From Candidatus Makana argininalis (GTDB lineage: Bacteria; Pseudomonadota; Gammaproteobacteria; Enterobacterales; Enterobacteriaceae), in contig JBISJU010000001.1 in the NCBI GenBank assembly GCA_044442865.1, forward strand, positions 31,402-95,401: a DNA stretch of 64,000 nucleotides, read 5' to 3'. The notes beneath the pieces were generated by a model. The model ran no database searches, was not told the DNA's origin, and worked only from the letters and a program-made list of their open reading frames with translations. The stretch's first letter is position 1, and each line of letters opens with the position of its first letter. Of this stretch, positions 5,959-56,304 are shown in pieces. The position numbers and the translations under genes are program-made.

Positions 5959-6142
5959 TTTAATTCCTATTAAATAAATATTTATATTATATTATTTATA
6001 TAATTTTAATTTTAAAAAAAATAGTTTAAAATATAAATAATGTATATTTTTAATATTAATATTATTAAATAAAATTATTTAATAATATTAAAAAATAATT
6101 TATATATATTTAATTTAATAAAATTTAAGGATAATTATTATT

Positions 6143-6691
6143 ATGATAATAATTAATTTTTTAGTAAAATCTATTATAGATTTTTATATAATACTAATTA
6201 TTATTAGAATTTGGATTCAATGGACAAAATGTGATTTTTACAATTCATTTTATCAATTAACTGATAAAATTACATACCCATTAATTAAAATAATTAAATA
6301 TTTAATACCTAATTATGTAAATACATGCCTTTTTATAATATCTATTTTTTTAGCAATAATTAAATTTCCAATTATTATTTTTTTTGAAACAAAATTATTA
6401 AAATTAAAAATAATTTATTTATTTATAGGAATGATAACTTTAATAAAGACAATTGGTAATTTAGTATTTTGGATTTTAGTATTACGTTTATTATTAATAA
6501 AATTTAAAAAAGATAAAAGTATTATAAATGAAGTTATTTATATGTTAAGTGAATCATTAATATTTTTAATTAAAAAAATACTTCCATATTCATATACTAT
6601 AAATTTTTTATTTTATTTGTTAATATCCTTTCTTTTTTCACTTAATTATTTAGGTATTTATTTACTTCCAGGTATTTGGTATAGAATTTAA
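6143..6691 (+). CDS. yggT: YggT-family integral membrane protein
   Basis: 182-aa hydrophobic ORF. IRIWIQWTKCDFYN and C-terminal LLPGIWY match E. coli YggT (LRIWMQWAHCDFYN...LLPGLWMAL). hemW/yggW lies downstream, as in E. coli. Confidence 0.75.
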   Translation: MIIINFLVKSIIDFYIILIIIRIWIQWTKCDFYNSFYQLTDKITYPLIKIIKYLIPNYVNTCLFIISIFLAIIKFPIIIFFETKLLKLKIIYLFIGMITLIKTIGNLVFWILVLRLLLIKFKKDKSIINEVIYMLSESLIFLIKKILPYSYTINFLFYLLISFLFSLNYLGIYLLPGIWYRI

Positions 6692-10146: not shown

Positions 10147-13100
10147 TTAAATTAATAACTTATCTATATAATTTATTAATTTAAAATTAGGTTTACAATA
10201 AAAAATACCATTATTTTTATTTACATTATTTATACCTCTTAAAAACAAATAATATACACCACCAAAATCTTTTTTATAATTATATTTATAAAGTTTTTGT
10301 TTTAAAAAACGATGAAGTGCTAATGTATAAATTTGATATTGTAAATCATATCTATTGTTAATAATAGATTTTTCTATATTATCTATATTATAAAATTTTT
10401 CATTTTCTCCAAGCCAATTAGATTTATAATCTAAAATATAATATTTTTTATTCCATCTAAAAACTAAATCTATAAACCCTTTCATCATACCTTTTGTTTT
10501 TGGAAAATTTATATTTATACATTTATAAGTAATAAGATCATATTTTTTACAAATATTTTGTAAATTATTTGTAAAAAAAAAATCCTTAATAGGAATATAA
10601 AAAGAAAATTCATTACATTTATCTTTGGATTTTATTTTTTTAAGTGAAAGATCATTATTATCCAAATTATAATCAATAATATTTTCAATCCATTTAATTA
10701 TTACATTTTTCCACATTATATCAATATTTTTATTATTCATTATTTTATTTAAAAAATGTAAACTTATTTTTTTTTTAAAATTTATATTTTTAAGCAAAAT
10801 ATGTAAAAAATTACCTGTTATTTTTCCAGTAGGAAAATTATGTTGGTTTAAAGTTGCAATTTTAATTTTTTTTTTTTTAGAATTTTTAAATATATCTATT
10901 TTGGGTAAAGTTATATTTTTAATATATTTTAAATTTCTATTTAATGATGAATAACTAATAATTGTATCATTAACTATATTAATATTATTAATATTTTTTT
11001 TTTTTTTAAATTTTAATAATGTATTTACATTATGATTTTTTTTTTTTTTATTAAAATATTTTTTTTTACTTATTATAATATCTCCTTTTGATTTTTTAAC
11101 TAAAAATTTTATTTTATTTTCTAAAAAATTAATATCTCCAGCAACACCATTTTGAATTAAATAACCAATAGCACTTTTATGAACACTATTATTATTTGTT
11201 TTTCGATTTTTTCCTTTATGTAAAGATGATATTCCTATACTGCAATGATATATTGATCTTGTTAAAGATACATAAAGAATTCTTAAGTCTTCTGCAAGTC
11301 TCTCAATATCTATTTTATTAATTGAAATTTTTGAATTTAAAGAATTTAAATAAAATATATTTTTTTTAATTCTATAATCGGCAATAAATGGTAAAAAAAC
11401 TATTGGAAATTCCAAACCTTTTGATTTATGTACAGTTATTATATTAACAAAATTGTTATTATTTTTTAAAATTGATGTTGTATTTTTCAAATATTTATTA
11501 GATGAGTATATTTTTTCTTCCAATAATCTAATTATTGATAATCTATTCTCAAAATGTATAGATTCTTCTTGTAATAATTCACCTAAATGCATTAAATTTG
11601 AAAATTTTTTTTCACCTTCTTTTAGAAATAAAAGTTTTTTTTTAATTTTATAATCTTTAATTAACTCTTTTATCATAGGATGTATACCATATTTTTTCCA
11701 TATTATTTTATATTTAATAAATTTATTTAAATGATAATATAATATTTTTTTATTTTTATTTAACATTTTAATTTCATTAAAATCAAAACCAATAATATCT
11801 GTTATCAGAGCTTTCTTAATATATAAATTATTAGTATACAAAACTGCTTTTAATATCCACATTAAATCAACTGATTCTTTAGATTTAAATATATTTTCAC
11901 TTTTAGATATAAATATTGACGGTATATTAAATTTTGTTAATGCATTACTAATTAAATTAGCTTCATTTCCATTTCTTATTATTATTGTTATATCAGAGGC
12001 AGTAATATATTTTTTACCAAAATTTCCTTCTATCCATGTTTTTTTTTTATTTGAAGAATTTATCCAAGAAAAAATAGTATTTGCACATTTATTAGACATA
12101 TATTTTTTATATTCATGTGAATTTACTATAATATCCGGTTGTATCCAAATATTCATAGCAGGATAAATTTTGTTATTTACTATTAGTTTTAATTTTTTAT
12201 TTTCTTTGGAGTATTTTAATGGTACAAATGAAATTTCTTTAAAAATAAAAGGATTGGAAAATGAAGTAAATAAATTATTAACAGCATTAATCATTCCTTT
12301 AGAAGAACGCCAATTAACATCAAGAGTATAATGATTATTTATTTCATTTTTAGCTCTAATATATGTTAAAATATCAGCACCCCGAAAACCATAAATAGAT
12401 TGTTTAGGATCACCTATAATTAAAAAAAAACAATTTTTATAACCTATATATATTTTTTTAAAAATATTATATTGCTTTAAATCTGTATCTTGGAATTCAT
12501 CAATTATTGCTACTGGATATAATTTACGTATTTTATTTGATAATTTTGATCCAAATTTTCCTTGAATGATTTTTTCTAAAATAGTAATTAGATCATTAAA
12601 ACTAATTTTTGATCTTCTATTTTTTTCTTTTATAATATATTTTTCAATTTTGAAAACAGAAAATAAAAAAATTTCTTTTTTTATTGATAAATTATCTAAA
12701 TAGTAATTTTCAATTATTTTAAATAAAACAAAATTTTTATTATTATTTTGAATATTATTTTTAAATAAATTTGATAATTTAAATTTTGATAATTCATTAG
12801 GAACTTTATCATCAATTGTAGGTTCATTAGCCCATTTATCAATTTTATTTAACCATTTAATTATATTTTTTTTACTATAAATTTTTTTATTTATGTTAGA
12901 ATTATATATAAATTTTCTAAATAAAGAAAATTTAATCCAATTTTTTTTTAATAAATTAATATTTGATATTATATTTTTATATATTTGAATTATTGAATAA
13001 TTTTTTTTTGATAAATTATATTTTTTGTTTAAATTAATATTTAAATAGGGTGATATATTAATATAAAAATTTTTAGGATTTTTCCAGTATTTTTTTATTA

Positions 13101-13635
13101 ATATAGCTATATTATAAGGTAAAACAGAAAAATTTTTATTCCAGAAATAATAAGTTGATGTATATTTTAAAATTGATTCATCTTCTATAATCTCTTTATC
13201 AAATATAATACCAGATTGTACAATATTTTTATTTAAAATTTTTTTACAAAAACCATGAATAGTATAAATAGATAATTCATTTATTTTATTTTTAGCTATA
13301 ATTAATAATAATTTAGCTATTTTAATATTTTTTATTTTTTTAAATAATTTCATAATTATATAATTATTACTTTTTTTTTTAATACATTCATTATATAATA
13401 AATTTATGTTCTCAATTATACGATTTTTAATTTCATTTTTTGCTAATTCAGTGAATGTTACAATTAATATTTTGTCTGCTTTTATAGGTTTAAAATGATT
13501 TTTACTTATCATTCCTAAAATTAAACGTAAATATAATATAGATATAGTATATGTTTTTCCTGTTCCTGCTGATGCCTCTATTAATATATTTCCAAATAAA
13601 GGTAAATCAATTGAATTAAAAATTTTTTTAATCAT
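10147..13635 (-). CDS. recB: exodeoxyribonuclease V beta subunit
   Basis: 1162-aa ORF. N-terminal UvrD-type Walker A (EASAGTGKTYTI), DEFQDTD, and C-terminal nuclease motif GFIDLVF...ILDYKSN. Confidence 0.92.
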   Translation of the reverse strand: MIKKIFNSIDLPLFGNILIEASAGTGKTYTISILYLRLILGMISKNHFKPIKADKILIVTFTELAKNEIKNRIIENINLLYNECIKKKSNNYIIMKLFKKIKNIKIAKLLLIIAKNKINELSIYTIHGFCKKILNKNIVQSGIIFDKEIIEDESILKYTSTYYFWNKNFSVLPYNIAILIKKYWKNPKNFYINISPYLNINLNKKYNLSKKNYSIIQIYKNIISNINLLKKNWIKFSLFRKFIYNSNINKKIYSKKNIIKWLNKIDKWANEPTIDDKVPNELSKFKLSNLFKNNIQNNNKNFVLFKIIENYYLDNLSIKKEIFLFSVFKIEKYIIKEKNRRSKISFNDLITILEKIIQGKFGSKLSNKIRKLYPVAIIDEFQDTDLKQYNIFKKIYIGYKNCFFLIIGDPKQSIYGFRGADILTYIRAKNEINNHYTLDVNWRSSKGMINAVNNLFTSFSNPFIFKEISFVPLKYSKENKKLKLIVNNKIYPAMNIWIQPDIIVNSHEYKKYMSNKCANTIFSWINSSNKKKTWIEGNFGKKYITASDITIIIRNGNEANLISNALTKFNIPSIFISKSENIFKSKESVDLMWILKAVLYTNNLYIKKALITDIIGFDFNEIKMLNKNKKILYYHLNKFIKYKIIWKKYGIHPMIKELIKDYKIKKKLLFLKEGEKKFSNLMHLGELLQEESIHFENRLSIIRLLEEKIYSSNKYLKNTTSILKNNNNFVNIITVHKSKGLEFPIVFLPFIADYRIKKNIFYLNSLNSKISINKIDIERLAEDLRILYVSLTRSIYHCSIGISSLHKGKNRKTNNNSVHKSAIGYLIQNGVAGDINFLENKIKFLVKKSKGDIIISKKKYFNKKKKNHNVNTLLKFKKKKNINNINIVNDTIISYSSLNRNLKYIKNITLPKIDIFKNSKKKKIKIATLNQHNFPTGKITGNFLHILLKNINFKKKISLHFLNKIMNNKNIDIMWKNVIIKWIENIIDYNLDNNDLSLKKIKSKDKCNEFSFYIPIKDFFFTNNLQNICKKYDLITYKCININFPKTKGMMKGFIDLVFRWNKKYYILDYKSNWLGENEKFYNIDNIEKSIINNRYDLQYQIYTLALHRFLKQKLYKYNYKKDFGGVYYLFLRGINNVNKNNGIFYCKPNFKLINYIDKLLI

Positions 13636-13676
13636 ATAATTTATTTTTTTTCAAATATTTTATTTTAATAAAAATT

Positions 13677-16600
13677 TTATATTTTATTAAATTTTAACAT
13701 TGGTAATAAATATTTTTCAAATAAAAAAAACATTTCATTTATATTTTTTTTATTTAAATGTTTAACAACTTTTTTAATGTAAATATTATTATATTCAGAA
13801 TAAAATTCTTTTTTTTGATTAAAATATTTTATTATTTGTTCTCCAACTTTTTTTTTAATATTAACATTTTTATTTAAAGTTTTATTTTTACTATTATAAC
13901 AATATTGTTTCCATATATTACTTGAACTATAAAATAACAATAAAGGTTCTAAAATTCCTTTAAAATAACCTAAAATATAAAACATTAATAAATTTTTAGC
14001 TTTTTTTTTTTTAACAGGTAAAAAATTCCACTCTCCATTTATAAAAAACATAATACTATTTTTTTTTCCATCATATAAACAATAAATTAAATGTTCTATC
14101 CATAAAATTAAACCATCTTTAATTGATATTTTTTTTGTACTCCATTTAATTATTCTATCTTTATAAAAATTATCAATCCACCCAATTAAAGTTATATTTT
14201 TAAAATTTAAACACACTTCTAAAGTTCTTTTTTTTAAAATATTAAATATTTTTATTTTATTATATAAATTAATTAATTTTTTATATTGTTCTAAAAAAAA
14301 TATTTTTCCAAATATTCCGTATTGTAGTAATCCAGAATATTTTATTTCATTAAATATTTTATTTATATTATTTTTTTTTATAATTAAATTTAATATTTTT
14401 TCTTTAATTTTGAAATTTGTGAAAATATTATTTAAATAATCTTTTTCATATGAACTTTCTATAAATGATTTATTAAAATAAATTTTTAAATTATTTATAA
14501 ACCATGTTTTAATAGGGTTATTATAAAATTCAATAATATCTTCTAGTTTTAATATTTTATTTTTAAAATTTAATAATAATTTTGAATTTAAAGATAAATC
14601 ATATTTTAATTTTAATAAATTTTTTTTAAAATAATTTTTTTTTTTTTTTAAAAAAAATGTATTTTTTTTTAAAAAAAAATTTATATCATGAAATTTAAAA
14701 ATATGTTTTATAATATTATTTATAATCTGTTTCTCTTCTAAATATTGATCTCCTTCAATATAAAAATTATTTGATATATAATAAATTAATTCATTCACAA
14801 ATGTAGAATTAGTATTAATATTATTATTTTTAATATCATTTCCAATAAAACTTACATAAAAAATATCTTTAGCAGATAAAATAGACTCTAAAAAATAATA
14901 CTTAAGATTTTCTAAAATATTAATATCACCAATTCTTGGATGTTTAAAAATCAAATTATAATTATTTTTATATTTTTTCTTTTGTATAATATTATCATTA
15001 ATTCCTAATATACATACTATTCTAAAATTTATAGAAGACATAGATTTTAAATTACAAAAATTTATTTTTCCAAATAAAAAATTATTTATTATTTTTTTTT
15101 TATTTAATTTATTAAATAATTCTTCTTTAATTAATTTTACAGAAATTTTTTCTTTAAATTTAGATTTAATACAATATTTTAATATTTTTTTCCATGTACT
15201 TTTAATAAGTGTTAAAATATTTTCTTCCTTGGGGGAAGTAGCATAAAAAAAAGAAGATATAATTTTTTCAGAAATTGAACACCAATATTTTATTTTTCTA
15301 GGTTTTAAAAGCTTTTTTTTAAAATATTTAATATTATTTATTAAATCATAAAATTTACCTAATAAACATGACGATAATCCATATGTCTTATCATATGGAA
15401 GAATTTTATTCCAAGATCCGAACTCACTATTCATTGCATAACCTAAAAACATTCTATTAAATCCAAAATCCCATGAATTTAAATTATTAATATTTTCAAT
15501 AAAATTATTATCTTTTTTTTCTTCATCTAATTCTAATTTAATTCCTGATTCTAATACCCATCTATTTAATATATCAATTTCTTTATTTTTGATATTAAAT
15601 TTACGTGATATAGATTTTACTTCTAAAAATTTTAAAATTTTTTTTGCAGATAATTTAATAAATGGTAAATCTAATAATTTCATAAAAGATAATGATATTA
15701 AATTAATTTTTTTCGATTCAATATCTGAAATATAAAATGGTAAATTATTTTTTAAATTATAATTTCCAAATATAGATTTAATTGATGCTACATAATTCTT
15801 TATATTTGGAGCCATTACAATAATATTTTGTGGTTTTAATGTTACATCTTTAGACATAATTAATAATAATTTATCATATAAAATTTCTATTTCTTTGTAA
15901 TAACTGTAACAAGCATTAATATTAATAGAAAAATCTTTTATTTTTATCATTCTTTTTAAAATTTTATTTTTATAAATATGTTTTTTATTTTCAGATGAAT
16001 AATTTTTTAAAATAAGAATGTCTTTTTTAATTAAATTTAAAATATTATTTTTAATAGGTTTAATAAATGCATTTATTTCTATAATTCTATTTAAATTAGA
16101 AATTAAATATATATATTCTTTACATTTCTTACCCCATGAAGAAAGAAAATAATTTCCTAAATTAGGTTTACTTATATAATTCAATAATACAGATTTTGTT
16201 TTATTATTTATAAAAATTATATTATTATTTTCTTTTATACATTTGTTTATTATTTTTTCAAAAAAATTAAAATCTTCTATATCTCCCCAATAATGTTTAC
16301 ATGGATTTATAAACATATTATGAATATCCATAGAATTTCCTAATAATTCTAATAATTTAATATAAATAGGAGGTAATGAAGATATTCCAAAAATAAATAC
16401 TCTATTTGGTAATTTTATATTTTTTCTTTTTTTGTTTTTTATAATATTTTTAATATTATTAAAATTTTTATCATGTTGTAAAATTAATTCATTATAATGT
16501 ACTTTATTATTTATTAATTTTCTCCATAAAAAAGATTGCCAAATCTGATCTTCATCCAAATTTTTTATTAATTTTCCTTCTTTCCAAGATTTTAACCAAT

Positions 16601-17030
16601 CAGGACGATATATTCTGTATTGATTAAAAATATAAGCTAATTGAGTAGAAAATTTAAATTTTTTTAAAATATCATTATTTTTTAAAAAATATTTAATTTT
16701 TAAAAAATATTTATTATTTAATATATCAGGTATTAAAGAAAAAATTTTCCATGTCATAATAGAATTATTACAAGTATATTTATATTTTATATTAGGTAAT
16801 AAATTAGAAATAACATTACATATAAATTTCGAAATAGTAATAAATTTTATATTTGCATATATACCAAGTTGTTCTGATAATTTAATTTTTATCCAATTTG
16901 CAATATTTTTATTTTTAACTATAATTATTTCTGGTTTTAAAGGATCATTTTTTTTTTTTTTAACAGATATTAATAAAGAAATAATTATCTTAAGCATATC
17001 TGTGCTATTTGAATGATATATTATAAACAT
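13677..17030 (-). CDS. recC: exodeoxyribonuclease V gamma subunit
   Basis: 1117-aa ORF upstream of recB-recD. Length matches E. coli RecC (1122 aa). ptrA, which sits between recC and recB in E. coli, is absent. Confidence 0.88.
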   Translation of the reverse strand: MFIIYHSNSTDMLKIIISLLISVKKKKNDPLKPEIIIVKNKNIANWIKIKLSEQLGIYANIKFITISKFICNVISNLLPNIKYKYTCNNSIMTWKIFSLIPDILNNKYFLKIKYFLKNNDILKKFKFSTQLAYIFNQYRIYRPDWLKSWKEGKLIKNLDEDQIWQSFLWRKLINNKVHYNELILQHDKNFNNIKNIIKNKKRKNIKLPNRVFIFGISSLPPIYIKLLELLGNSMDIHNMFINPCKHYWGDIEDFNFFEKIINKCIKENNNIIFINNKTKSVLLNYISKPNLGNYFLSSWGKKCKEYIYLISNLNRIIEINAFIKPIKNNILNLIKKDILILKNYSSENKKHIYKNKILKRMIKIKDFSININACYSYYKEIEILYDKLLLIMSKDVTLKPQNIIVMAPNIKNYVASIKSIFGNYNLKNNLPFYISDIESKKINLISLSFMKLLDLPFIKLSAKKILKFLEVKSISRKFNIKNKEIDILNRWVLESGIKLELDEEKKDNNFIENINNLNSWDFGFNRMFLGYAMNSEFGSWNKILPYDKTYGLSSCLLGKFYDLINNIKYFKKKLLKPRKIKYWCSISEKIISSFFYATSPKEENILTLIKSTWKKILKYCIKSKFKEKISVKLIKEELFNKLNKKKIINNFLFGKINFCNLKSMSSINFRIVCILGINDNIIQKKKYKNNYNLIFKHPRIGDINILENLKYYFLESILSAKDIFYVSFIGNDIKNNNINTNSTFVNELIYYISNNFYIEGDQYLEEKQIINNIIKHIFKFHDINFFLKKNTFFLKKKKNYFKKNLLKLKYDLSLNSKLLLNFKNKILKLEDIIEFYNNPIKTWFINNLKIYFNKSFIESSYEKDYLNNIFTNFKIKEKILNLIIKKNNINKIFNEIKYSGLLQYGIFGKIFFLEQYKKLINLYNKIKIFNILKKRTLEVCLNFKNITLIGWIDNFYKDRIIKWSTKKISIKDGLILWIEHLIYCLYDGKKNSIMFFINGEWNFLPVKKKKAKNLLMFYILGYFKGILEPLLLFYSSSNIWKQYCYNSKNKTLNKNVNIKKKVGEQIIKYFNQKKEFYSEYNNIYIKKVVKHLNKKNINEMFFLFEKYLLPMLKFNKI

Positions 17031-17082
17031 AATGTTATATATTATTTTTTTTATTTTTAAATTTAAATTAAATAAATTATTT

Positions 17083-27473: not shown

Positions 27474-28724
27474 TTAAAAATTTTTACGTATTACTCCATA
27501 ACCTCCACATTTTTTACATGTTTGATAGTTAAATATATTTATAGATTTATTTAATCTCTGACGAGATAATTCTAATATATAAAAACGTGAAATTTTAGTA
27601 AAATATATTTTAGCACTATCTTTTTTAAATAATTTTTTAAAAAATTTTTCTAATATATTTTTATTTTTAAAATTATTCATATTTATAAAATCAATAATAA
27701 TTAAACCATTTATATTTCTAAATATAATTTGTCTAAAAATTTCATAAGCAGCTTCAATATTAGTATTAAAAGAAGTTTCTTTAATATTTAAACCCTGTTT
27801 GGATTTAAAAGAATTTACATCAATAGATGTTAAAGATTCATGATTTTCAATAATAATAGAACCACCTGATGGTAATTTTATTTTTCTTTTGAAAATTGAT
27901 TCTATTTGATTATCGATTTGATAATAACTAAAAATATTTTGTTTATTATTAAAAAGTTTAATATTTTTTTTACAAAATTTTTCTTTAAAAAATAAAGAAT
28001 TTTTTTTAAGAAATTTTAATAATTTACTATTATCTAATATAATTTCTTTTATATCGTATTTTAAATAATTACGAAAATAATTATTAATTATGTTGTTTTC
28101 TTTATAAAGTAAAAATGGAGCTTTTACATTATTATAAGTATTTTTTATTAATTTCCAATTTTTATTTATAAAAGAAATATCATATTTTAAATCAATAGAT
28201 GATTTACCTATACCTGATGTTCTCACTATAATTCCCATATTTTTAGGTAAATTAATATTAGTAATTTTAGATTTTATTTTTTTTCTATCTAAACCTTCTA
28301 TCTTACGTGAAATACCTAATATTTTAGGATTATTAGGTATTAATATTAAATAATTTCCATATAAATTAATAAAAGTAGTTAATTTTGCACATTTATTTTC
28401 ATTTTCTTCTTGATATATTTGTACTATTATTTCTTGACCTACATAAATATTATTTTTAATATTATTATTATTTAAATTATATTTTTTATCACAATATTCA
28501 TTACAAATATGTTTATTTTGCAAAAAACCATGACGCTCATCACCATAATCTACAAATACTGCATTTAAACTAGGTTCTATTTTAGATATTATACCTTTGT
28601 ATATATTAAATTTTTTTTGTTTTTTATTTGTTATATAAATATCTAATTCACAAAGATGTTGTCCGTCTATTACAGCAATAATTATTTCTTTTTTTTTAAT
28701 TTTACTAATTAAAATTTTTATCAT
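27474..28724 (-). CDS. rne: ribonuclease E, naturally truncated (large catalytic domain plus Zn-link only)
   Basis: 416-aa ORF. NIYKGIISKIEPSLNAVFVDYGDERHGFL (S1 domain), SIDVNS (D303 equivalent), IIDFINM (D346 equivalent). It ends CKKCGGYGVIRKNF, the CPxCxGxG Zn-link at about residue 404-407 of the 1061-aa E. coli enzyme. Divergent from rluC, as in E. coli. Confidence 0.88.
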   Translation of the reverse strand: MIKILISKIKKKEIIIAVIDGQHLCELDIYITNKKQKKFNIYKGIISKIEPSLNAVFVDYGDERHGFLQNKHICNEYCDKKYNLNNNNIKNNIYVGQEIIVQIYQEENENKCAKLTTFINLYGNYLILIPNNPKILGISRKIEGLDRKKIKSKITNINLPKNMGIIVRTSGIGKSSIDLKYDISFINKNWKLIKNTYNNVKAPFLLYKENNIINNYFRNYLKYDIKEIILDNSKLLKFLKKNSLFFKEKFCKKNIKLFNNKQNIFSYYQIDNQIESIFKRKIKLPSGGSIIIENHESLTSIDVNSFKSKQGLNIKETSFNTNIEAAYEIFRQIIFRNINGLIIIDFINMNNFKNKNILEKFFKKLFKKDSAKIYFTKISRFYILELSRQRLNKSINIFNYQTCKKCGGYGVIRKNF

Positions 28725-28852
28725 TATAAATTACTCATTATATAAATTTAATTTAAATTAATAATTAAATTTAAAAATATATTTTATTTATTAATTTCTT
28801 ATTGGATATAAATAATAATTATTTTTTAAAAATTAAAATTATTTATTTTTAA

Positions 28853-28916
28853 AAATTTAAACATTATTTATATAATTAAATAATATAATTTAATTATATA
28901 AATAATGTTTAAATTT
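28853..28916. repeat. perfect 29-bp inverted repeat with a 6-nt loop in the rne/rluC divergent intergenic region
   Basis: 28853-28881 pairs without mismatch with 28888-28916. The loop is AATATA. Confidence 0.9.
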
Positions 28917-28938
28917 AATCACTTTTATAAAATTAACT

Positions 28939-29886
28939 ATGATTATAAAAAAATTTAAATTAATTAATGTTTCTTATGAAAAATCTAATCAAAGAATAGA
29001 TAATTTTTTAATTCATTATTTTAAAAAAATATCAAAAAATTTATTATATTTGTTTATTCGTAAAGGTTTAATTTTAGTTAATAATAAAAAAATAAACCAA
29101 AAATATAAAATAAATTATAATGATATAATAAAAATTCCAGAAATAATTTTAAAAAAAAAAAAAAAAATAAAAATTATAAATAACATAAAAATTGATTTAT
29201 TAAAAAAATCGATAATTTATGAAGATAATTATCTTATTATTATTAATAAACCATCTGAAATATCAGTACATGGATGTTTAAATTCAAGAATAGGTATTAT
29301 TGAATATTTTAGAATTTTACGTCCTAAATTAAGTTTTTTAGAATTAGTGCATAGATTAGATAAAGAAACATCAGGAGTATTAATTTTGGCAAAAAAAAAA
29401 ACAATTTTATGTGATTTACATAATCAATTAAGAGATAAAAAAATCAAAAAAGAATATTTAGCTTTAGTTAAAGGTCGTTGGAATAAAAATATTAAATATG
29501 TATCTCAACCATTATTAAAAAAAAAAAAAAATAATAATAAACATATGGTAAAAATTAATAGTTCAGGAAAAAAATCTAAAACATTATTTAATGTAAAAGA
29601 AAGATTTAAAATAGCAACTTTACTAAAAGTTATTCCATTAACTGGAAGAACTCATCAAATTAGAGTTCATGCCTTATTTGCAGGACATCCTATAGCATTT
29701 GATAATAGATATGGTGATAAAAGTTTTGATAAAAAATTAAAACTGTGTGGACTTAAAAGTTTATTTTTACATGCAAGTTCAATTATTTTTAATCATCCTG
29801 TTAATCATAAAATCATAAATATAAAAGCTGAATTAAATTTAAAAATGAAAGAATGTATAATATATTTACGTGAATATAATAAATAA
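28939..29886 (+). CDS. rluC: 23S rRNA pseudouridine synthase RluC
   Basis: 315-aa ORF. RluA-family catalytic motif HRLDKETSGVL and GRTHQIRVH. Position is divergent from rne. Contains in-frame A17 and A15 tracts. Confidence 0.88.
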   Translation: MIIKKFKLINVSYEKSNQRIDNFLIHYFKKISKNLLYLFIRKGLILVNNKKINQKYKINYNDIIKIPEIILKKKKKIKIINNIKIDLLKKSIIYEDNYLIIINKPSEISVHGCLNSRIGIIEYFRILRPKLSFLELVHRLDKETSGVLILAKKKTILCDLHNQLRDKKIKKEYLALVKGRWNKNIKYVSQPLLKKKKNNNKHMVKINSSGKKSKTLFNVKERFKIATLLKVIPLTGRTHQIRVHALFAGHPIAFDNRYGDKSFDKKLKLCGLKSLFLHASSIIFNHPVNHKIINIKAELNLKMKECIIYLREYNK

Positions 29887-31342: not shown

Positions 31343-32299
31343 ATGTCTAAACTAGATAACATTAAATTAATAATATTGGGATCTGGTCCTGCTGGTTACA
31401 CAGCATCAATTTATGCATCTAGAGCAAATCTTAATCCTGTTTTAATTACAGGAAGTAATCCAGGTGGACAATTAAATATAAATACTTTAATAGAAAATTG
31501 GCCAGGTGATGTAAATAAATTAACAGGATTTGAATTAATGCATAGGATGAATAATCATGCACTAAAATTCAATACAAACATTATTTTTGATAACATAATA
31601 AAGACTGATTTTAGTGTAAACCCTTTTTTAATTATTGGAGAAAAATCAGAATATACATGTGATTCTTTGATAATAGCAACAGGATCTTCAGCGAAATTTT
31701 TAGGTTTAAAATCAGAATTATTTTATAAAGGAAAAGGCTTATCTACTTGTTCAACATGTGATGGTTTTTTATACAAAAATAAAAAAGTTGCAATAGTAGG
31801 AGGGGGTAATTCTGCTGTAGAATCAGCACTTTATTTATCTAAAATATCTAAAGAAGTTAATTTAATACACAGAAGTAATATTTTTAGAGCTGAAAAAATT
31901 CTTATGGATAGATTAAATGATAAAATCAAAAACAAAAATATTATATTACATACAAATAAAATTGTTAAAAAAATTATTGGAAATAATATTTGTGTTACAG
32001 GTTTAAAATTAAAAAATCAAAATAACAATAAATATGAATTTTTAAACATTGAAGGAGTTTTTATTTCAATAGGTCATACACCTAATACTTCTGTTTTTAA
32101 ATCACAACTTGAGCTTAGTAACGGATATATATCGGTCAACAAAAATAATAGAAATAGATTTACTGCTACATCAATAAAAGGAATATTTGCAGCAGGTGAT
32201 GTAATTGATAAATTTTATAAACAAGCAATTACTGCTGCTGGTTATGGATGCATGGCGGCTTTAGATGCTGAACGTTATTTGAACGAAAAAAATGATTGA
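31343..32299 (+). CDS. trxB: thioredoxin reductase
   Basis: 318-aa [15 protein letters not shown] motif, redox [19 protein letters not shown] motif. It is the only gene in the window ending in TGA. Confidence 0.95.
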
Positions 32300-36987: not shown

Positions 36988-38063
36988 ATTTTTTCCTTAT
37001 AACATTATATTAAAAATAATCGTTTTTTAAATAAAACCAATGTATGATTTTTTATCATATGCTATTATTTATATATATCATATATTTTAAATTTAGATTT
37101 TTTACGTTTATAAATATAATAAAAATATGTTTTCATTTAATTTAAACAATTAAAGTATTTATATATTATATTTATAATATTAATATATTTTTAAAATTTT
37201 TAAATTTTTTTTTTATGTTTGTTAATTAACACTTATTTATAATATAATTATTTGTATCTCTATATGTTTAAATAACTAAATCAAATAAATCATCACTGAA
37301 ATTAAAATATTTTATTAAAAATTAAAATTTTTAAATACTTTAGTATATATAATTATATTAAATATATTTAATTTTTAAATTTGTTTAGTAATATTAAAAA
37401 TATATAATTTATTGACACTGACTAATAACTATAATTATTTTATAATCATTATAACATATTTATATCTTTTAAAAAATGAAATATATTTAATTTATTCATA
37501 TATTATTAAAATTTAATTATATTAAAAATATAAATTAATAATTATAAACATATCAAAATATTTTATACTATTATTAATTTTTTTAAAAATAAACTTTTTT
37601 TAACTAATATTATACTAATTTTAATTAAATTAAAAATTTTTTATAAATAACAAAATATTTTGATATATAATTTTTTGATTTACTAAAAATATTGAATATA
37701 AATATGTTTTCAATATTTTTTTTAATATATTTTGTAAATAAATTAAAAGAATTACTATAAATCATTTTAATACATATTTATTTAATATATTTAAAATATA
37801 AATTTTTAATAAATTAATAATTTATAATAGTTATAAATTATTAATGTATATATTTTTTTTAAACAAAAATTAATTTTTGTTTTCAAATTTTTTTATAAAT
37901 TTTTAAAATATTAAATTTCATTTTAATTATAAATATAAAATAATATAAATTATTTTAAAATAACTTTAATTTAATTTAAATTATTTAATTTATAATAAAT
38001 AAATTTTATTTTATTTGTAAAATTTAAAAAATTAAATAAATTCATATAAATATTTTATAATAT

Positions 38064-38303
38064 TTATTTTTTTAATTTAAATTTTATACAATTAATTGCT
38101 TCTTTTATTGTAGTAATTTGTTCAAATTCTTCATCTTTAATTTCTAAATTAAAATTTTCTTCTAAAGATATTATTAATTCTATAATATCAAGAGAATCAG
38201 CACCTAAATCTTTAATAAATGATGTATTATATGAAATACTTTTTGTGCTTACTCTAAATTGTTTAGAAATAATTTTTTTTATTTTGTCTTCTATTTTATG
38301 CAT
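38064..38303 (-). CDS. acpP: acyl carrier protein
   Basis: 79-aa ORF with the phosphopantetheine site DLGADSLD. Downstream of fabG. Confidence 0.95.
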   Translation of the reverse strand: MHKIEDKIKKIISKQFRVSTKSISYNTSFIKDLGADSLDIIELIISLEENFNLEIKDEEFEQITTIKEAINCIKFKLKK

Positions 38304-38357
38304 TATTAAATTCCAATTTATATGTTTTAATATTTAAAAAATTAAATAAATTTTATT

Positions 38358-39092
38358 TTAAATCAAACAAATTCCACCATTAACATTTATTACTTCACCA
38401 GTAATATAAGATGATTCTTCTGAAGCTAGAAAAATTACTAAACTTGATACTTCTTCAGGTAACCCAAACCTATTCATAGGTATTCTAGATAAAAAATATT
38501 TACGTTTATTTAATGTTAATGATTTTGTCATATCAGTAATTATAAATCCTGGAGATACAACATTTACTGTTATACCCATAGATGCAACTTCATAGGATAA
38601 TGATTTACTTAATCCAACTAAACCGGCTTTAGAAGCAGAATAATTTGATTGTCCAATATTTCCAATAAACCCAATAAAAGATCCTATATTTATTATTCTA
38701 CCATATTTTTTTCTCATCATAATTTTTATTATGTATTTAGATATTAAAAATACTGAATTTAAATTAATATCTATAACAGATTTCCAATCATTTTCTTTCA
38801 TATTTATTAATAATTTATCAAAAATAATACCGATGTTGTTAATTAATACATCTATATATCTAAATTTTATATTTATTTTTTTAAAAAAATTTTTAATTGA
38901 TTTTTTTTTAGATACATCTAATTTAATGCCTATTCCTTTTTTACCTAAAAATGTATTTATGAAATTTACTCCTGAAGAACTTTTAGATGTACCAATTATA
39001 AATGCATCTAATAGTAAAAATTTTTTAACTATTGAAAGACCAATTCCTTTTCTTGCACCAGTTATTAATATAATTTTATTTTTAAAATTCAT
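38358..39092 (-). CDS. fabG: 3-oxoacyl-ACP reductase
   Basis: 244-aa SDR. TGARKGIG, NYSASKAG (YxxxK), and C-terminal NGG. Confidence 0.94.
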   Translation of the reverse strand: MNFKNKIILITGARKGIGLSIVKKFLLLDAFIIGTSKSSSGVNFINTFLGKKGIGIKLDVSKKKSIKNFFKKINIKFRYIDVLINNIGIIFDKLLINMKENDWKSVIDINLNSVFLISKYIIKIMMRKKYGRIINIGSFIGFIGNIGQSNYSASKAGLVGLSKSLSYEVASMGITVNVVSPGFIITDMTKSLTLNKRKYFLSRIPMNRFGLPEEVSSLVIFLASEESSYITGEVINVNGGICLI

Positions 39093-39101
39093 TAAATATC
39101 C

Positions 39102-40030
39102 TTATATAATTTTTTTATAAGCTTTTTTAATTGAATTAATATTATCAATAGAAATACATTCTATATTTTTAACTATATTTTTATTAATTTTAGTAAGTAT
39201 ATTACTTGGTCCACATTCTAATATTATTTTTACCCCGATTTTTGCAATATATTTAATAATTTTAATCCAATTTAATGGTTTATATAATTGATACAATAAT
39301 GATTTTTTAATTAAATTTATATTTTTTTCACAAGTAATACTTGTATTGTTAACAAATGGAATTTTTGGATTAATTAAATTTAATTTATCTAAAATTTTTG
39401 ATAATTCTAATGATATAGGTTTCATTAAATAAGAATGAAAAGGAAAACCAATAGGTAATAAAAAAGATTTAGCTCCAAATTCATAACATATTAAAATAGC
39501 TCTTTTTACGGCATTTTTATTTCCTGAAATTATTGTTTGATATTTAGTATTAAAAATTGCAGGAAATACTATTTCTCTTTTTGATGCTTTTTTACATGCA
39601 TAATAAATATATTTTTTATTTATACCTATAATAGCAGCCATTAATCCTTTTTTATATGGAAATAAATTTTTTATTATTTTTTCTCTATTTTTTAATAATT
39701 TTAATGTATGTTTAAATTTCAAAATACCAGAACATGTTAAACATGAATATTCTCCTAAACTATGACCCGCTATTACATTTGGGTTTATCCCTACAATGTC
39801 CTTTCATAATCGCCATATTGATATAGATGATACTAATAATACTATTTGTGATTTATATGTAAAATAAAATTTTTTTTTGTCATTATTTATTATTTTATAT
39901 AAATCATATCCTAAGAAGCATGAAGCTTCATCAAATGTATCTTTAATGATTTTGTATTTATTTATAAATTTGATGATGTTTTTTTTTTATTATATCCTTG
40001 ACCAGGAAAAACTATTGAAAATTTTTTCAT
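39102..40030 (-). pseudogene. fabD: malonyl-CoA-ACP transacylase with two lesions: frameshift in an A10 tract and an in-frame TGA at a conserved Trp
   Basis: The minus strand reads ATG-KKFSIVFPGQGYNKKK, then A10 (T10 on the + strand, 39979-39988) breaks the frame. The +1 frame continues IIKDTFDEASCFLGYDL...SISIWRL-TGA(39806-39804)-KDIVGINPNVIAGHSLGEYS and runs into the 206-aa ORF. The whole is collinear with E. coli FabD. Confidence 0.85.
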
Positions 40031-40085
40031 TTTTATTTCCTATTTTTAGTATAATTTATTGTTAAAATAATTAAATTAAATATAA

Positions 40086-40289
40086 TTATTTTAATTTGTT
40101 TTTTTTAATATCTTTTTTGTTTTTAATAATTTTTTTACCTTTATAAAAACCATTTTTGGATACATGATAACGTAAATGAGTTTCTCCAGAAATTTTATCA
40201 ATTGTTAAAGAAAAATTATTTTTTATTGAATCATGTGATCTCCTCATTCCTCGTTTAGATCTAGTACATTTGCTTTTTTGAACAGCCAT
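40086..40289 (-). CDS. rpmF: 50S ribosomal protein L32
   Basis: 67-aa [23 protein letters not shown] matches E. coli L32. It heads the fab cluster, as in E. coli. Confidence 0.93.
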
Positions 40290-40344: not shown

Positions 40345-41374
40345 TTAATTTAAAATACAAAATGGAGTTTTTATGTTACAAAAAATATAAATTATATTTA
40401 AAATATCATTCCATGCTTTGTATTTATAATCTGTTTTAATTAAAAATTCTATTTTACGAATTAAAGTTAATATTTTAAATAAATCAAACATTGACATATT
40501 AAATATTAATTTTTTATAAATATTTTTTAGTTTATTACAATAAATGTTGTTAATTTTAAAAATCATTTTTAATTTAGTGTTATTTATTTTTTTTTTCATA
40601 TTTATTAATTTAATAATACTATTTTGAATAATTCTAATTATTAAAATTGGTTCAATTAATTCATATTTGAATTTGTTTAAAATTTTATTTAAATTATTAA
40701 TATTTCCATACATAATTAAATATATTAATTTATATGAATTAACTTCACAAATATTATCTAATGAATATAATAAAAATTTTAAGTTTATCAATTTTTTATT
40801 AAAAATTATTTCAAGACTGTTTAATGATTTATTAATTAATAATAAATTTCCATCATAATAATTATATAAATAATCTAAAGCATTATAATTTATTAATATT
40901 TGTTTTTTTTTAATAATTAATTTTAATAACTTAAATTTATTATTTTTATTTATATCAGAACAATTAATTATTATTATATTTTTACAAATTAATTTTAACC
41001 ATAAGGAATTTAAAATTAATTTGTTTAAAACATTAATTTCAAAAATTATTAATATATTTTCTTTTATATTTAAAATTAAATCTTTTATTTTTTTGTCTAT
41101 TGTATAATTGTATATGTTTTTATTAAATTTTATTAAAATTATTTTATTTTCATAAAATAAATTTTTTTCATTTATTGAAAAAAAAATATTTTTCCAATCT
41201 GTTTTAAAATTTATTAAAAAAGATAATATTTTTTTAAATTTTTTTTTTTGATAATTTAATAATATTTTTTTTACTTTCTTCTAATAAAAATTTATTTTCA
41301 CCATATATTAAGTAAAATTTATTAAAATATTTTTTTGAATTTTTAATTAAATCATATGTAAATATTGTAATCAT
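40345..41374 (-). CDS. holA: DNA polymerase III delta subunit, interrupted by a frameshift in an A11 tract
   Basis: The minus strand from ATG 41374 reads MITIFTYDLIKNSKKYFNKFYLIYGENKFLLEESKKNIIKLS, then A11 (T11 on the + strand, 41239-41249). The shifted frame FKKILSFLINFKTDWKNIFF...YYDGNLLLINKSL runs uninterrupted into the 148-aa ORF. The 1030-nt span is 343 codons + 1 nt. Position is downstream of leuS, as in E. coli. Confidence 0.8.
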
Positions 41375-53363: not shown

Positions 53364-53415
53364 AAATTATTTATTAAGAACAAAATAAAATATTATTATA
53401 AATAAAGAGTAAATA

Positions 53416-54051
53416 TTGTCAAAATTTTTAATTTTTCGTCAATTGAATTTACAAAATTATAAAAAAATTGTATTAAAAATGAAATATTTTAGTAAAAATA
53501 GAAATAAATATAGTAATGATGAAATATGGTTATCTAATCATTTTAAAGTTTTTACACAAGGTAAAATTATTAAAAATAATAATTTTATTCAAAGTAGTAA
53601 TATACCTGTAAATAAAAGTGATAGGGGGGGGGAAATTACATTTCATGGACCAGGTCAACAATTAGTATATTTTTTATTAGATCTTAAAATTAATAAATTA
53701 AGAATTTTTGAATTAATTATTTTATTAGAAAAAATAATTATTTCAACTTTATATAAATTCAATATTTTTTCTCATTCTATTAAAAATTCTCCTGGTATTT
53801 ATATAAGATTTTACAAAATATGTTCTATTGGTTTAAATATTATTAAGGGATGTTCTCTGTATGGATTATCTTTAAATATAAAGATGGATATGTCGCCTTT
53901 TTTATATATAAATCCATGTGGATATAAAAATTTAAGAATGACTCAAATAAGTGATCTTTACCCTAAAATTAAAATTTTAAATATATTTAAAATAATAATA
54001 TTAGAATGTATAAAATTTTTAAAAATTAAAAAATATAAAATTATTTTTTAA
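53416..54051 (+). CDS. lipB: octanoyltransferase
   Basis: 211-aa ORF with a TTG start. DEIWLSNHFKVFTQG, SDRGGEITFHGPGQ, KICSIG (Lys) and NPCGY (Cys) match LipB. Contains a G9 run. Confidence 0.9.
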   Translation: MSKFLIFRQLNLQNYKKIVLKMKYFSKNRNKYSNDEIWLSNHFKVFTQGKIIKNNNFIQSSNIPVNKSDRGGEITFHGPGQQLVYFLLDLKINKLRIFELIILLEKIIISTLYKFNIFSHSIKNSPGIYIRFYKICSIGLNIIKGCSLYGLSLNIKMDMSPFLYINPCGYKNLRMTQISDLYPKIKILNIFKIIILECIKFLKIKKYKIIF

Positions 54052-54114
54052 AAAATTTATTTTTAAATATTACTATTAATAATTTTATATTTAAATTATG
54101 GAATTGAAATTAAT

Positions 54115-55071
54115 ATGAATAAAAAAATATATTTAAGTAAAAAAAATAATATAAAATCATCAAATAATATACCTATAAAAATAATAAATAAAGAAAATAA
54201 AATCAAAAAAATAAAAAAACCTTACTGGATAAAAAATAAAATACCATTTAAAAATAAACTAATAAAAAAAATTAAAAAAATTATTATTAAAAATAAATTA
54301 AATTCTGTATGCGAAGAAGCATTATGTCCAAATCTACCAGAATGTTTTAATTCTGGAACAGCATCGTTTATGATTTTAGGAAATGTTTGTACTCGTAATT
54401 GCCCTTTTTGTAATATTAATCATGGCAGACCAATATCTAAAAATTATAAAGAACCTTTTAATCTTTCCAAAGCTATCAATGAAATGAAATTAAAGTATGT
54501 TGTAATTACTTCTGTTAATCGTGATGATCTTCATGATGGAGGATCAAAACATTTCGCAAAATGTATTAAAATTATTAGAAAAAAAAGTCATAATATTAAG
54601 ATTGAAATATTAGTCCCAGACTTCAAAAATTGTATAAATGTAGCTTTAAATATAATTAATTTACATACCCCGGATGTATTTAATCATAATATTGAAAATG
54701 TACCAAGATTGTATAAAAAAATTAGACCTGGTGCTAACTATTTCAAATCTCTTCGGTTACTTGAAAAATTTAAATTTTTTAATCCTAAAGTACAAACCAA
54801 ATCAGGTATTATGATTGGTTTAGGTGAAAAAAAAAAAGAAATTTTAAATGTATTGAAAGATCTAATTAATTGTGGTGTAAATATGATAACAATTGGTCAA
54901 TATTTACAACCTTCTTCTTATCATTTACCTGTTAAAAGATATGTTAGTCTAGAAGAATTTAAATATATTAAAAATGAAGCACTAACAATGGGTTTTAAAA
55001 ATGTTTATTGTGGACCATTTGTACGTTCATCATATCATGCAGATTTACAATCAAAAAATTTATTAAATTAA
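54115..55071 (+). CDS. lipA: lipoyl synthase
   Basis: 318-aa [15 protein letters not shown] and the radical-SAM CTRNCPFC motif. Confidence 0.96.
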
Positions 55072-55164: not shown

Positions 55165-56262
55165 TTAAATATTAATATTAATTATTTTAAATTTTTCTAA
55201 AAAATTTAATTTACATAAATAAAATTTATTTATTATTTTATCTGATAATTTATAAAAATTTTTTATTATCTTTTTTTTTTCAAAAATAAAATTTTTATCA
55301 AAAAAAATACTATTTAAAATTCTTAAAAATATATTTTCAACCCATATTTTATATGAAATATTTGTAATTAATTTATTTAAAATACAAGATGTAAATTTAT
55401 TAACTTTACTAATTTTATATGATACAAAAATAGAATATTTAAAAGAATAACCTGTGGTATTATTTAACAAACCAGCTCTCAATCCACTACAAGGAATTTT
55501 TATATTTTTAATAAAAAAATTAAAATTATTATATATATAAATAGGAATTATCCCTTTTTCTTCTTTTCTAATATTTTTGATATTAAAGTTATTTTTTTTT
55601 AAAAATTTTAATATATTACTGTTATTAATTTTAGTATTTAAATTTAAATTATTTAAGTAAATTGTATCTTCAATAAAAATTGAATATGGAGAAATTGGTA
55701 AAATATATAAAAATCTATATCCATTTTTTTGATTAATTTTAGAATCTATAATAATTGGATTTTTAATATTATGATTTATATTAAGTTGAATTTCTTGACC
55801 AAAAAAATATTGAAAATAATATTTTATATTATTATTTTTTTTATAACCACGGCCGTCAATTATTATTTCTGCATTTAATATTAAATTATTATTTAATTTT
55901 AAAGTATGATCACTTAAAATACTAACAACATACTTAAATAATATTTTTTTTTTAAAAAATTTATTTATAAATTTATAAAATTTATATGAAGTAATAGTTA
56001 AATATTCTTTTTTTATTAATCTTCTATATTTATTAAAATTTACAATATATGTAGGCCAAAAATAATCAATAATTGGCAATAACCAATTATTTTTAATTAA
56101 TAAATTATTGGTAAGGTGAAAAGACCATTTTTTGTTGTTTTTTATATTTTTTTTTTCAATTAATAAAATATTTAACTCGGGAAAATATTGTTTTAAACGA
56201 ATAGCAATAAGTCCATTAGATAATCCCACACCGATAATAATTATACTGAAATATAATTTCAT
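55165..56262 (-). CDS. crtY: lycopene beta-cyclase, CrtY type (stand-alone)
   Basis: 365-aa intact ORF, collinear with Pantoea CrtY as I remember it: IIGVGLSNGLIAIRL / LVGAGLANGLIALRL; WSFH; WPTYIVNF / WPDYQVRF; IIDGRGY / VIDGRGY; QNGYRFLYILPISP..IEDT / QNGYRFVYSLPLSP..IEDT; CSGLRAGLLNNTTGYS / CSGLRAGLFHPTTGYS. Confidence 0.8.
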   Translation of the reverse strand: MKLYFSIIIIGVGLSNGLIAIRLKQYFPELNILLIEKKNIKNNKKWSFHLTNNLLIKNNWLLPIIDYFWPTYIVNFNKYRRLIKKEYLTITSYKFYKFINKFFKKKILFKYVVSILSDHTLKLNNNLILNAEIIIDGRGYKKNNNIKYYFQYFFGQEIQLNINHNIKNPIIIDSKINQKNGYRFLYILPISPYSIFIEDTIYLNNLNLNTKINNSNILKFLKKNNFNIKNIRKEEKGIIPIYIYNNFNFFIKNIKIPCSGLRAGLLNNTTGYSFKYSIFVSYKISKVNKFTSCILNKLITNISYKIWVENIFLRILNSIFFDKNFIFEKKKIIKNFYKLSDKIINKFYLCKLNFLEKFKIININI

Positions 56263-56304
56263 ATATATTATATTTAAAGTTTAATAATAAATATATTATT
56301 TTTA

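Follow-up and report, generated by a model that had tools for sequence, protein, structure and literature searches.

In the insect endosymbionts Buchnera and Blochmannia, transcriptional slippage on poly-A tracts yields a corrected share of 12–50% of transcripts, and a gene whose only defect is one homopolymer indel is counted as intact (PMC5009743 and PMC3017870, drawing on Tamas et al, 2008). In the Providencia siddallii strains PSOF and PSLP, 1.3–1.5% of genes carry a UGA at a tryptophan (Trp) codon while prfB and trnW(CCA) are kept; a transitional strain of this species reaches 20%, and symbionts with a reassigned code use UGA for Trp in 50–70% of their genes (PMC10540940). Here we analysed a 64-kb stretch of DNA from Candidatus Makana argininalis (the window), in which fabD, the gene for acyl carrier protein (ACP) S-malonyltransferase, carries both a single-nucleotide frame defect near poly-A tracts and an in-frame TGA at a conserved Trp codon.

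Makana is a Morganella-like co-symbiont of Hawaiian Pariaconus psyllids with a genome of ~277 kb; its assemblies are single circular contigs obtained with MEGAHIT from Illumina NextSeq reads at a depth of ~1,200x, each from one insect (PMC11425488). The GC content of the window is 18.6%. The closest relatives of the repaired FabD protein are FabD proteins of Ca. Makana argininalis (77–80% identity), which come from four metagenome-assembled genomes of 277–287 kb labelled “Candidatus Makana argininalis” or Enterobacterales bacterium. The four sister loci (L001, L002, L003, and L004) and the window (WIN) thus represent five Makana genomes in total. Based on their comparison, we consider it probable that the window belongs to a standard-code genome in which an old, slippage-compensated frame defect in fabD has been joined by a young nonsense mutation, with FabD output drastically reduced or just lost. 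The two lesions are not equivalent, and differ in age and in consequence.

The fabD gene and its two lesions

The elements of fabD that the analysis relies on are the following.

39102–40030, minus strand: fabD, ACP S-malonyltransferase, with ATG at 40030–40028 and TAA at 39104–39102; carries two lesions
39992–40030, minus strand: first 13 codons including the start (MKKFSIVFPGQGY), with the oxyanion-hole GQG motif; 5′ of the frame defect
39979–39988, minus strand: A10 run, the only slippery run within the correctable interval; one added nucleotide or a −1 ribosomal fix here restores the open reading frame (ORF)
39964–39988, minus strand: permissive interval, in which any single-nucleotide addition gives the full-length ORF (offsets 42–66 from the ATG)
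39955–39965, minus strand: interrupted remnant of the second poly-A tract (ATAAATAAATA), which holds the frame-0 TAA at 39964–39962
39804–39806, minus strand: in-frame TGA at Trp codon 76, next base A (UGA-A)
39750–39767, minus strand: GHSLGE active-site motif, with the Ser codon AGT at 39761–39759; 12 codons 3′ of the TGA
Junction peptide of repaired FabD: …GYNKKKNIIKFINK…; the peptide across Trp76 is SISIWRLWK

Unrepaired, frame 0 of fabD reads MKKFSIVFPGQGYNKKKTSSNL and ends at the TAA at 39964–39962. With one more A in the A10 run, the gene becomes an ORF of 309 codons whose sole interruption is the TGA at 39806–39804. The repaired FabD aligned over residues 1–297 with the E. coli enzyme (PDB 1MLA; E = 4.8e-65) and over residues 1–301 with that of V. 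cholerae (PDB 3HJV; E = 1.4e-71), and the TGA coincides with a Trp of both structures. Its top NCBIfam family was TIGR00128 fabD (E = 1.7e-68, 231.2 bits, profile positions 2–289 of 290). This score falls short of the curated equivalog cutoff of 260.9 bits; because the intact sister protein P0002 is likewise under the cutoff, at 246.8 bits, we attribute the shortfall to clade-wide AT-driven divergence and not to the lesions. The residues Q11, S91, R116, and H199, which correspond to the Gln of GQG, the Ser of GHSLGE, and the equivalents of Arg117 and His201, are kept, and these catalytic columns are invariant across the 116–119 homologues that cover them. At the column of codon 76, 116 of 119 homologues have Trp and the remaining three Tyr.

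Much of this agrees with an earlier note on the same DNA, made from the letters alone. The start ATG, the A10 run, and the TGA lie on the minus strand at the coordinates it gave (39979–39988 for the run and 39806–39804 for the stop), and the E. coli FabD sequence from which it had deduced a Trp at the TGA was right. Its description of the stop as a TGG-to-TGA transition at a conserved Trp is supported by TGG in four of four sisters and by the homologue column above, and its view of the rest of the gene as open and FabD-like by the 309-codon repaired ORF and the full-length alignments.

Frame defect and selection in five Makana genomes

We aligned the fabD locus of the four sisters with the window and computed where one added nucleotide restores the ORF. 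Only L002 has fabD in frame; the other four genomes are each one nucleotide short, either within or next to one of the two poly-A tracts that lie close to the 5′ end of the gene. The in-frame L002 copy has two A10 tracts and reads YHKKKILLDLKKKYK, and its ILLDL aligns with MLADM/MLADL of E. coli and Vibrio. L004 is short at the first tract, which is A9, and L001 at the second tract. In the window and L003 the first tract is still A10, and one nucleotide is missing in the now-interrupted second tract. As the A10 run of the window has the same length as in the in-frame orthologue, this run is a site of possible compensation and not of nucleotide loss; the missing nucleotide lies ~20 nucleotides downstream in the second tract, whose remnant falls one nucleotide short of the A10 found in L002 and L004. 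The earlier placement of the frame loss in the A10 run is therefore right about where the frame can be restored and wrong about where the nucleotide was lost.

One added nucleotide restores the window copy only within 39988–39964, that is, in the A10 run and the next 15 nucleotides. Correctable intervals in the defective sisters contain A10 in L003, A9 in L004, and two A8 runs in L001, either of which works. Correction at A10 instead of at the second tract alters five residues, from ILLDL to NIIKF. A concatenated 15.8-kb alignment gave the unrooted tree ((WIN,L002),(L003,(L001,L004))), with 156 sites supporting the split of WIN and L002 versus 76 for the next split. This topology shows that the frame defects do not derive from one inherited event: the defect is a clade-wide state, recurrent at two tracts and not monophyletic.

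We also noted a 9-bp stem that starts two nucleotides past the A10 run and pairs UCAUCAAAU (39976–39968) with AUUUGAUGA (39936–39928) on the minus strand, within the conserved DTFDE codons. For the segment 39928–39976 we predicted an energy of −9.2 kcal/mol, with a z-score of −2.7 and equally stable folds in 5 of 200 shuffles, and both G-C pairs arise from window-specific T-to-C changes. Considered as a possible frameshift-stimulating hairpin, this element is absent in all sisters, including L003 with the same defect; it was found post hoc and was not used as evidence.

Selection on fabD was assessed by the ratio of non-synonymous to synonymous substitution rates (dN/dS), calibrated for this base composition by 60 runs of neutral simulation. 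All ten pairs of genomes gave values of 0.39–0.60 for fabD. Values for leuS were 0.39–0.48 and for holA 0.29–0.70, and sufD and acpP fell in the same band as fabD. In the neutral runs, dN/dS averaged 1.46 and never fell below 0.92, and stops accumulated at ~100 per substitution per site, corresponding to ~10 per terminal branch (minimum four). The three frameshifted sisters have no downstream stop in fabD and the window has one. The ATG and FSIVFPGQG are retained in all five genomes, and the first 13 codons differ almost exclusively in their third positions (TCA/TCT, ATA/ATT, CAA/CAG, GGA/GGT/GGG). Between the two tracts, three T-to-C changes of the window leave the shifted-frame amino acids unchanged (AAC ATC ATC, encoding NII); in the original frame the same changes would replace Ile/Leu with Thr/Ser, which is radical.

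Thus, purifying selection acts on fabD in each of the ten pairs. Since this selection persists despite the defect in four of five genomes, the frameshift is tolerated and is not evidence of inactivation, contrary to the earlier note, which had treated the two lesions alike. Comparison with related strains had been proposed there as a way to find additional stops or frameshifts; three of four sisters do have frame defects, and none has an additional stop. By analogy with Buchnera and Blochmannia, rescue of the frameshift by slippage on the A-run is the most likely explanation.

Frame loss at homopolymers is otherwise rare in this DNA. Genes of the window contain 101 A or T runs of at least nine nucleotides, 99 of them in frame; the exceptions are in fabD and holA. 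Frame loss is therefore generally purged and specifically tolerated in these two genes. Very long in-frame poly-A runs occur in rluC (28906–29886; A17 and A15), recC (13677–17081; A15 and A14), and recB (10147–13650; two of A14).

The same counts bear on a technical explanation, namely that the consensus hides a working fabD, either because genome copies with A11 and/or TGG coexist with the majority A10/TGA allele in symbionts that are probably polyploid or because the homopolymer was miscalled. Homopolymer length does vary fast in this fabD stretch among the five genomes, and each assembly is a short-read MEGAHIT consensus from one insect (PMC11425488). Set against this are the ~1,200x Illumina depth and closed circular contigs, and the 99 in-frame runs, which make systematic miscalling unlikely. 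Moreover, the TGA arose by substitution in sequence without repeats, and the missing nucleotide falls within a stretch that is not homopolymeric. We regard a hidden intact copy as quite improbable.

Codon 76 and the genetic code

Codon 76 is TGG in all four sisters, and the TGA is private to the window genome. By parsimony, the terminal branch of the window carries 17 non-synonymous and 12 synonymous changes in fabD versus 314 and 293 in the other 19 genes (Fisher p = 0.57); the intact copy of L002 has 22 and 9. Window-specific amino-acid changes affect 13 of 278 fabD codons (4.7%) versus 4.2% across the other genes, and the GC content of fabD is 19.4% in the window and 18.7–20.4% in the sisters. 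With no rate acceleration, GC decay or further stops in the window copy, the TGA is young. Because one stop is seen versus ~100 expected per unit of neutral divergence, any neutral period of this copy would be bounded at ~0.05 substitutions per site, about one third of the terminal branch. We also modelled the first stop to appear under neutral decay with a simple Hasegawa–Kishino–Yano (HKY) model. TAA came first in 64–77% of cases and TGA at a Trp codon followed by A in 1.3–6.9%, odds that mildly favour selection still filtering lesions when the TGA was fixed.

These data bear on the view that the frameshift had turned fabD into a pseudogene long before the TGA appeared, and that the gene is simply decaying along with clade-wide fatty-acid synthesis. 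Such a history would accommodate the two disruptive mutations of the window copy, the frameshifts in four of five genomes, the loss of plsX, fabH, and fabF, and the death of the adjoining tgt gene in the window lineage. It is contradicted by the dN/dS of 0.39–0.60 against a neutral 1.46, by the zero stops in the frameshifted sisters and the single one in the window where ~10 per terminal branch are expected, and by the unchanged GC and rate; in addition, conservation extends to the catalytic residues and to the 13 codons that precede the defect. The adjoining tgt, which really is dead, presents a wholly different picture. This gene, encoding queuine tRNA-ribosyltransferase, is intact in all four sisters (368 aa), and its position in the window (36997–38063) is taken by 1,067 bp of spacer DNA with a GC content of 6.9%, in which tblastn recovers only faint collinear traces of the protein. 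It is a fully decayed, window-lineage-specific pseudogene beside the fab cluster. Long-standing death of fabD is accordingly very unlikely.

Reading of UGA as Trp throughout the genome, which the earlier note had left as an option, does not hold for the window or the sister loci. The real genes of the window contain ~170 TGG codons, and the TGA of fabD is the only in-frame TGA (one of ~57 genes). The 84 genes of the sister loci (21–22 each) contain 223 TGG codons (55–57 each) and no internal TGA. Three stop-to-stop frames of the window have a TGA just 5′ of the true start, and one TGA ends a gene there:

32297–32299, plus strand: TGA as the stop of trxB, at the natural C-terminus

TGA also ends fabD in L001, L003, and L004, sufA in L002 and L004, and nusB in L002. 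Read-through past the terminal TGAs of these genes and of trxB would add only 2–7 residues, so this observation is not decisive alone. Together, the TGG and TGA counts contradict genome-wide code 4; the code is most probably the standard bacterial one, with UGA as a genuine stop. None of the five tRNAs in the window is a tRNA-Trp, and prfB does not lie within the 64 kb.

Two further observations concern stop and Trp codons. The fabD stop is TGA in L001 (10888–10891), L003 (10813), and L004 (10813–10816) and TAA in the window (39102–39104) and L002, such that stop-codon type turns over within the clade. The TGA overlaps the ATG of fabG as ATGA in L001 and L004, and the two genes as called in L003 overlap by a single base. 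Separately, a 189-aa ORF without an NCBIfam family match (6122–6691, plus strand) contains four TGG codons and no in-frame TGA.

In E. coli, UGA is read through at 2–4%, and at a higher rate without release factor 3 (RF3) (PMC10570021); tRNA-Trp is reported to read UGA more readily when the next base is A (PMC10540940, citing Engelberg-Kulka, 1981). By analogy, UGA-A at Trp76 would be the most bypassable type of stop, and its read-through would restore the native Trp. A narrower form of recoding may therefore be considered, in which this genome is at an incipient stage of UGA-to-Trp reassignment, or performs efficient programmed read-through, as in “early-onset” Providencia siddallii (Morganellaceae); termination at UGA would then be weak enough for a few genes to have UGA at Trp codons and still yield protein in useful quantity. 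The affected fraction, 1 of ~57 window genes (1.8%), is near the 1.3–1.5% of PSOF and PSLP (PMC10540940). The UGA-A context, the mildest possible stop type, and the intact and constrained downstream pathway genes are all in line with this idea, and RF3, whose loss raises UGA read-through, is often missing in tiny genomes (PMC10570021). However, there is a single case, which none of the four sisters shares, whereas P. siddallii keeps some UGAs between strains; the 84 sister genes have no in-frame TGA, and TGA stands at natural gene ends. The affected gene, moreover, is already compromised and adjoins the dead tgt. We consider reassignment or programmed read-through unlikely. Slightly more doubtful is the specific scenario in which this Makana strain has taken the first step of reassignment in parallel with P. 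siddallii, through weak UGA termination (e.g., RF3 loss or a compromised RF2) that would let a TGG-to-TGA change be fixed in a gene still required; if normal expression of fabD also depended on poly-A slippage across the clade, this copy would be doubly recoded.

Selenocysteine at the UGA, or an active enzyme from a restart after it, is effectively excluded by the Trp column and the positions of start codons. Gene calling did yield a candidate of 231 residues (P0003) that begins just past the stop. The first in-frame ATG, GTG or TTG after the TGA is the TTG at 39722, past the active-site Ser, and re-initiation can therefore not yield an enzyme; any product from after codon 76 would also be without the GQG oxyanion motif. 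None of the 119 homologues has Cys or selenocysteine at this position, and 116 have Trp. A 277-kb genome would not be expected to retain selABCD.

We therefore return to the reading of a standard-code genome with an old, compensated frame defect and a young stop. The proposed course of events begins with the loss of one nucleotide near the 5′ end of fabD, in the former second poly-A tract, a change that would be old and tolerated. Realignment of RNA polymerase on the A10 run would then add one A and restore the frame; the identical product would result if the ribosome slipped by −1 on A AAA AAA, and the two mechanisms are not separable here. A minority of products would be correct, such that the frame lesion would lower FabD output without killing the gene. 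With the TGG-to-TGA change at Trp76, most ribosomes would release a 75-residue fragment lacking the active-site Ser, and near-cognate reading by tRNA-Trp, favoured by the following A, may still give some full-length FabD with its native Trp. Multiplying the published ranges of 12–50% corrected transcripts and 2–4% UGA read-through, FabD output would be ~1% of the original or less. The gene is thus either on a trickle or newly dead, and its decay has not yet begun. The alternatives named in the earlier note, very recent inactivation or slippage plus read-through, were a fair statement of the case for the TGA.

Four points weigh against this reading. Pairwise dN/dS averages the time before and after each frameshift. 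The argument from the mildest possible stop draws on a single event, analysed with a simple HKY model. An output of ~1% might be lethal for a needed enzyme, which would favour fabD being already dispensable. Finally, plsX, fabH, and fabF are gone from the cluster in all five genomes, and a complete fatty-acid pathway may be in doubt. Against dispensability, the intact and constrained fabG, acpP, lipB, and lipA argue that the pathway is still needed.

Neighbouring genes and comparison with known systems

The five genomes share the order leuS, holA, rpmF, fabD, fabG, acpP, tgt. Of the classical rpmF-plsX-fabH-fabD-fabG-acpP-fabF cluster, only rpmF-fabD-fabG-acpP remains (38064–40289 in the window and ~9700–12000 in L001–L004), with plsX, fabH, and fabF absent from this locus in five of five genomes. 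The earlier note had called the following genes intact, and constraint and profile scores confirm it.

38358–39092, minus strand: fabG, intact; dN/dS 0.22–0.26 in pairs with the window, strong constraint
38064–38303, minus strand: acpP, intact, DSL motif present
53413–55071, plus strand: lipB and lipA, intact; LipB 238.6 bits versus a cutoff of 235, LipA 403.6 versus 310

LipB and LipA consume octanoyl-ACP. In the window lineage, acpP has the highest share of lineage-specific amino-acid changes, 9 of 79 (11.4%) versus 4.2% overall, as it also does in L004 (11601–11846; 10.1%); as the gene is small, this may be noise. The holA gene (DNA polymerase III delta; 40345–41374 in the window) is split by a 2-nucleotide length change in a poly-A tract, which is A11 in the window (41249–41239) and A13 in L003 and L004. 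An independent loss of one nucleotide beside another A10 occurs in holA of L002 (8606–9636). The loss of plsX, fabH, and fabF from the cluster, the death of tgt, and the poly-A frame defect in holA are points beyond the earlier note.

The window further contains argB, argH, rho, trxA, gnd, hemW, recDBC, glnS, rpoD, dnaG, tsaD, dnaB, rne, rluC, serS, trxB, infA, tsaB, manXYZ, nusB, hspQ, eno, sufABCDSE, pykF, crtY, lon, clpXP, tyrS, and cyoA, in addition to acpP, fabG, fabD, rpmF, holA, leuS, lipB, lipA, and the five tRNAs. The rne gene (27474–28730, minus strand) codes for no more than the N-terminal catalytic half of RNase E; its 418 aa match positions 1–416 of a 1,068-position model. Beside lipA lies crtY (lycopene beta-cyclase; 55165–56280, minus strand), with a score of 275 bits to TIGR01789 versus a cutoff of 215. 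Other psyllid and whitefly symbionts carry carotenoid genes. In the paper describing Makana, carotenoids appear in the reference list only (PMC11425488).

The fabD locus offers a natural experiment on gene death or survival in tiny genomes. Across five genomes that separated within a few million years, one 30-nucleotide stretch of the gene is repeatedly out of frame and selection is kept; the window lineage adds the mildest nonsense mutation, and the adjoining tgt displays what real decay looks like. For annotation, the lesson is that, in genomes of this kind, two disruptive mutations do not make a gene an old pseudogene. Under AT pressure, moreover, the change of a Trp codon to UGA is the expected mutational route, and such a codon alone is no evidence of recoding.

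Of the known systems, Buchnera and Blochmannia share with Makana an AT-rich insect endosymbiont genome, a single-nucleotide defect at a long poly-A tract in an otherwise intact ORF with no rate acceleration, and the recurrence or persistence of the defect among relatives. A replication gene is hit likewise, holA in Makana and dnaX and dnaG in Blochmannia. Unlike in those genera, where slippage has been shown, it is deduced from sequence for Makana fabD; the Makana nucleotide was lost in a since-interrupted second tract with compensation ~20 nucleotides upstream, four of five genomes are hit in one gene at two tracts, and the window copy adds a nonsense codon.

Makana resembles P. siddallii PSOF and PSLP in having a reduced genome of low GC content, in the replacement of a conserved Trp codon TGG by TGA with A as the next base, and in a similar fraction of affected genes in the sample. 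Providencia is usually placed in the same family as Morganella. Unlike in P. siddallii, the Makana case is one instance in 64 kb that the sisters do not share, in a gene that is also frameshifted and lies beside a decayed one. Should more such UGAs occur in the rest of this genome, Makana would join P. siddallii as a second symbiont just entering a code change.

Nascent pseudogenes of reduced genomes resemble the window copy in combining two disruptive mutations with nearby gene loss (tgt) in the same lineage; here, unlike in such pseudogenes, both lesions are of a bypassable kind and constraint is not yet measurably relaxed. With the code-4 symbionts Hodgkinia, Zinderia, Nasuia, and Stammera, Makana has in common a tiny AT-rich genome and a UGA at a Trp position (PMC2704378, PMC10540940). 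In code-4 endosymbionts, however, 50–70% of genes carry UGA-Trp and prfB is lost, whereas the Makana window has ~170 TGG codons to one in-frame TGA and uses TGA to end genes.

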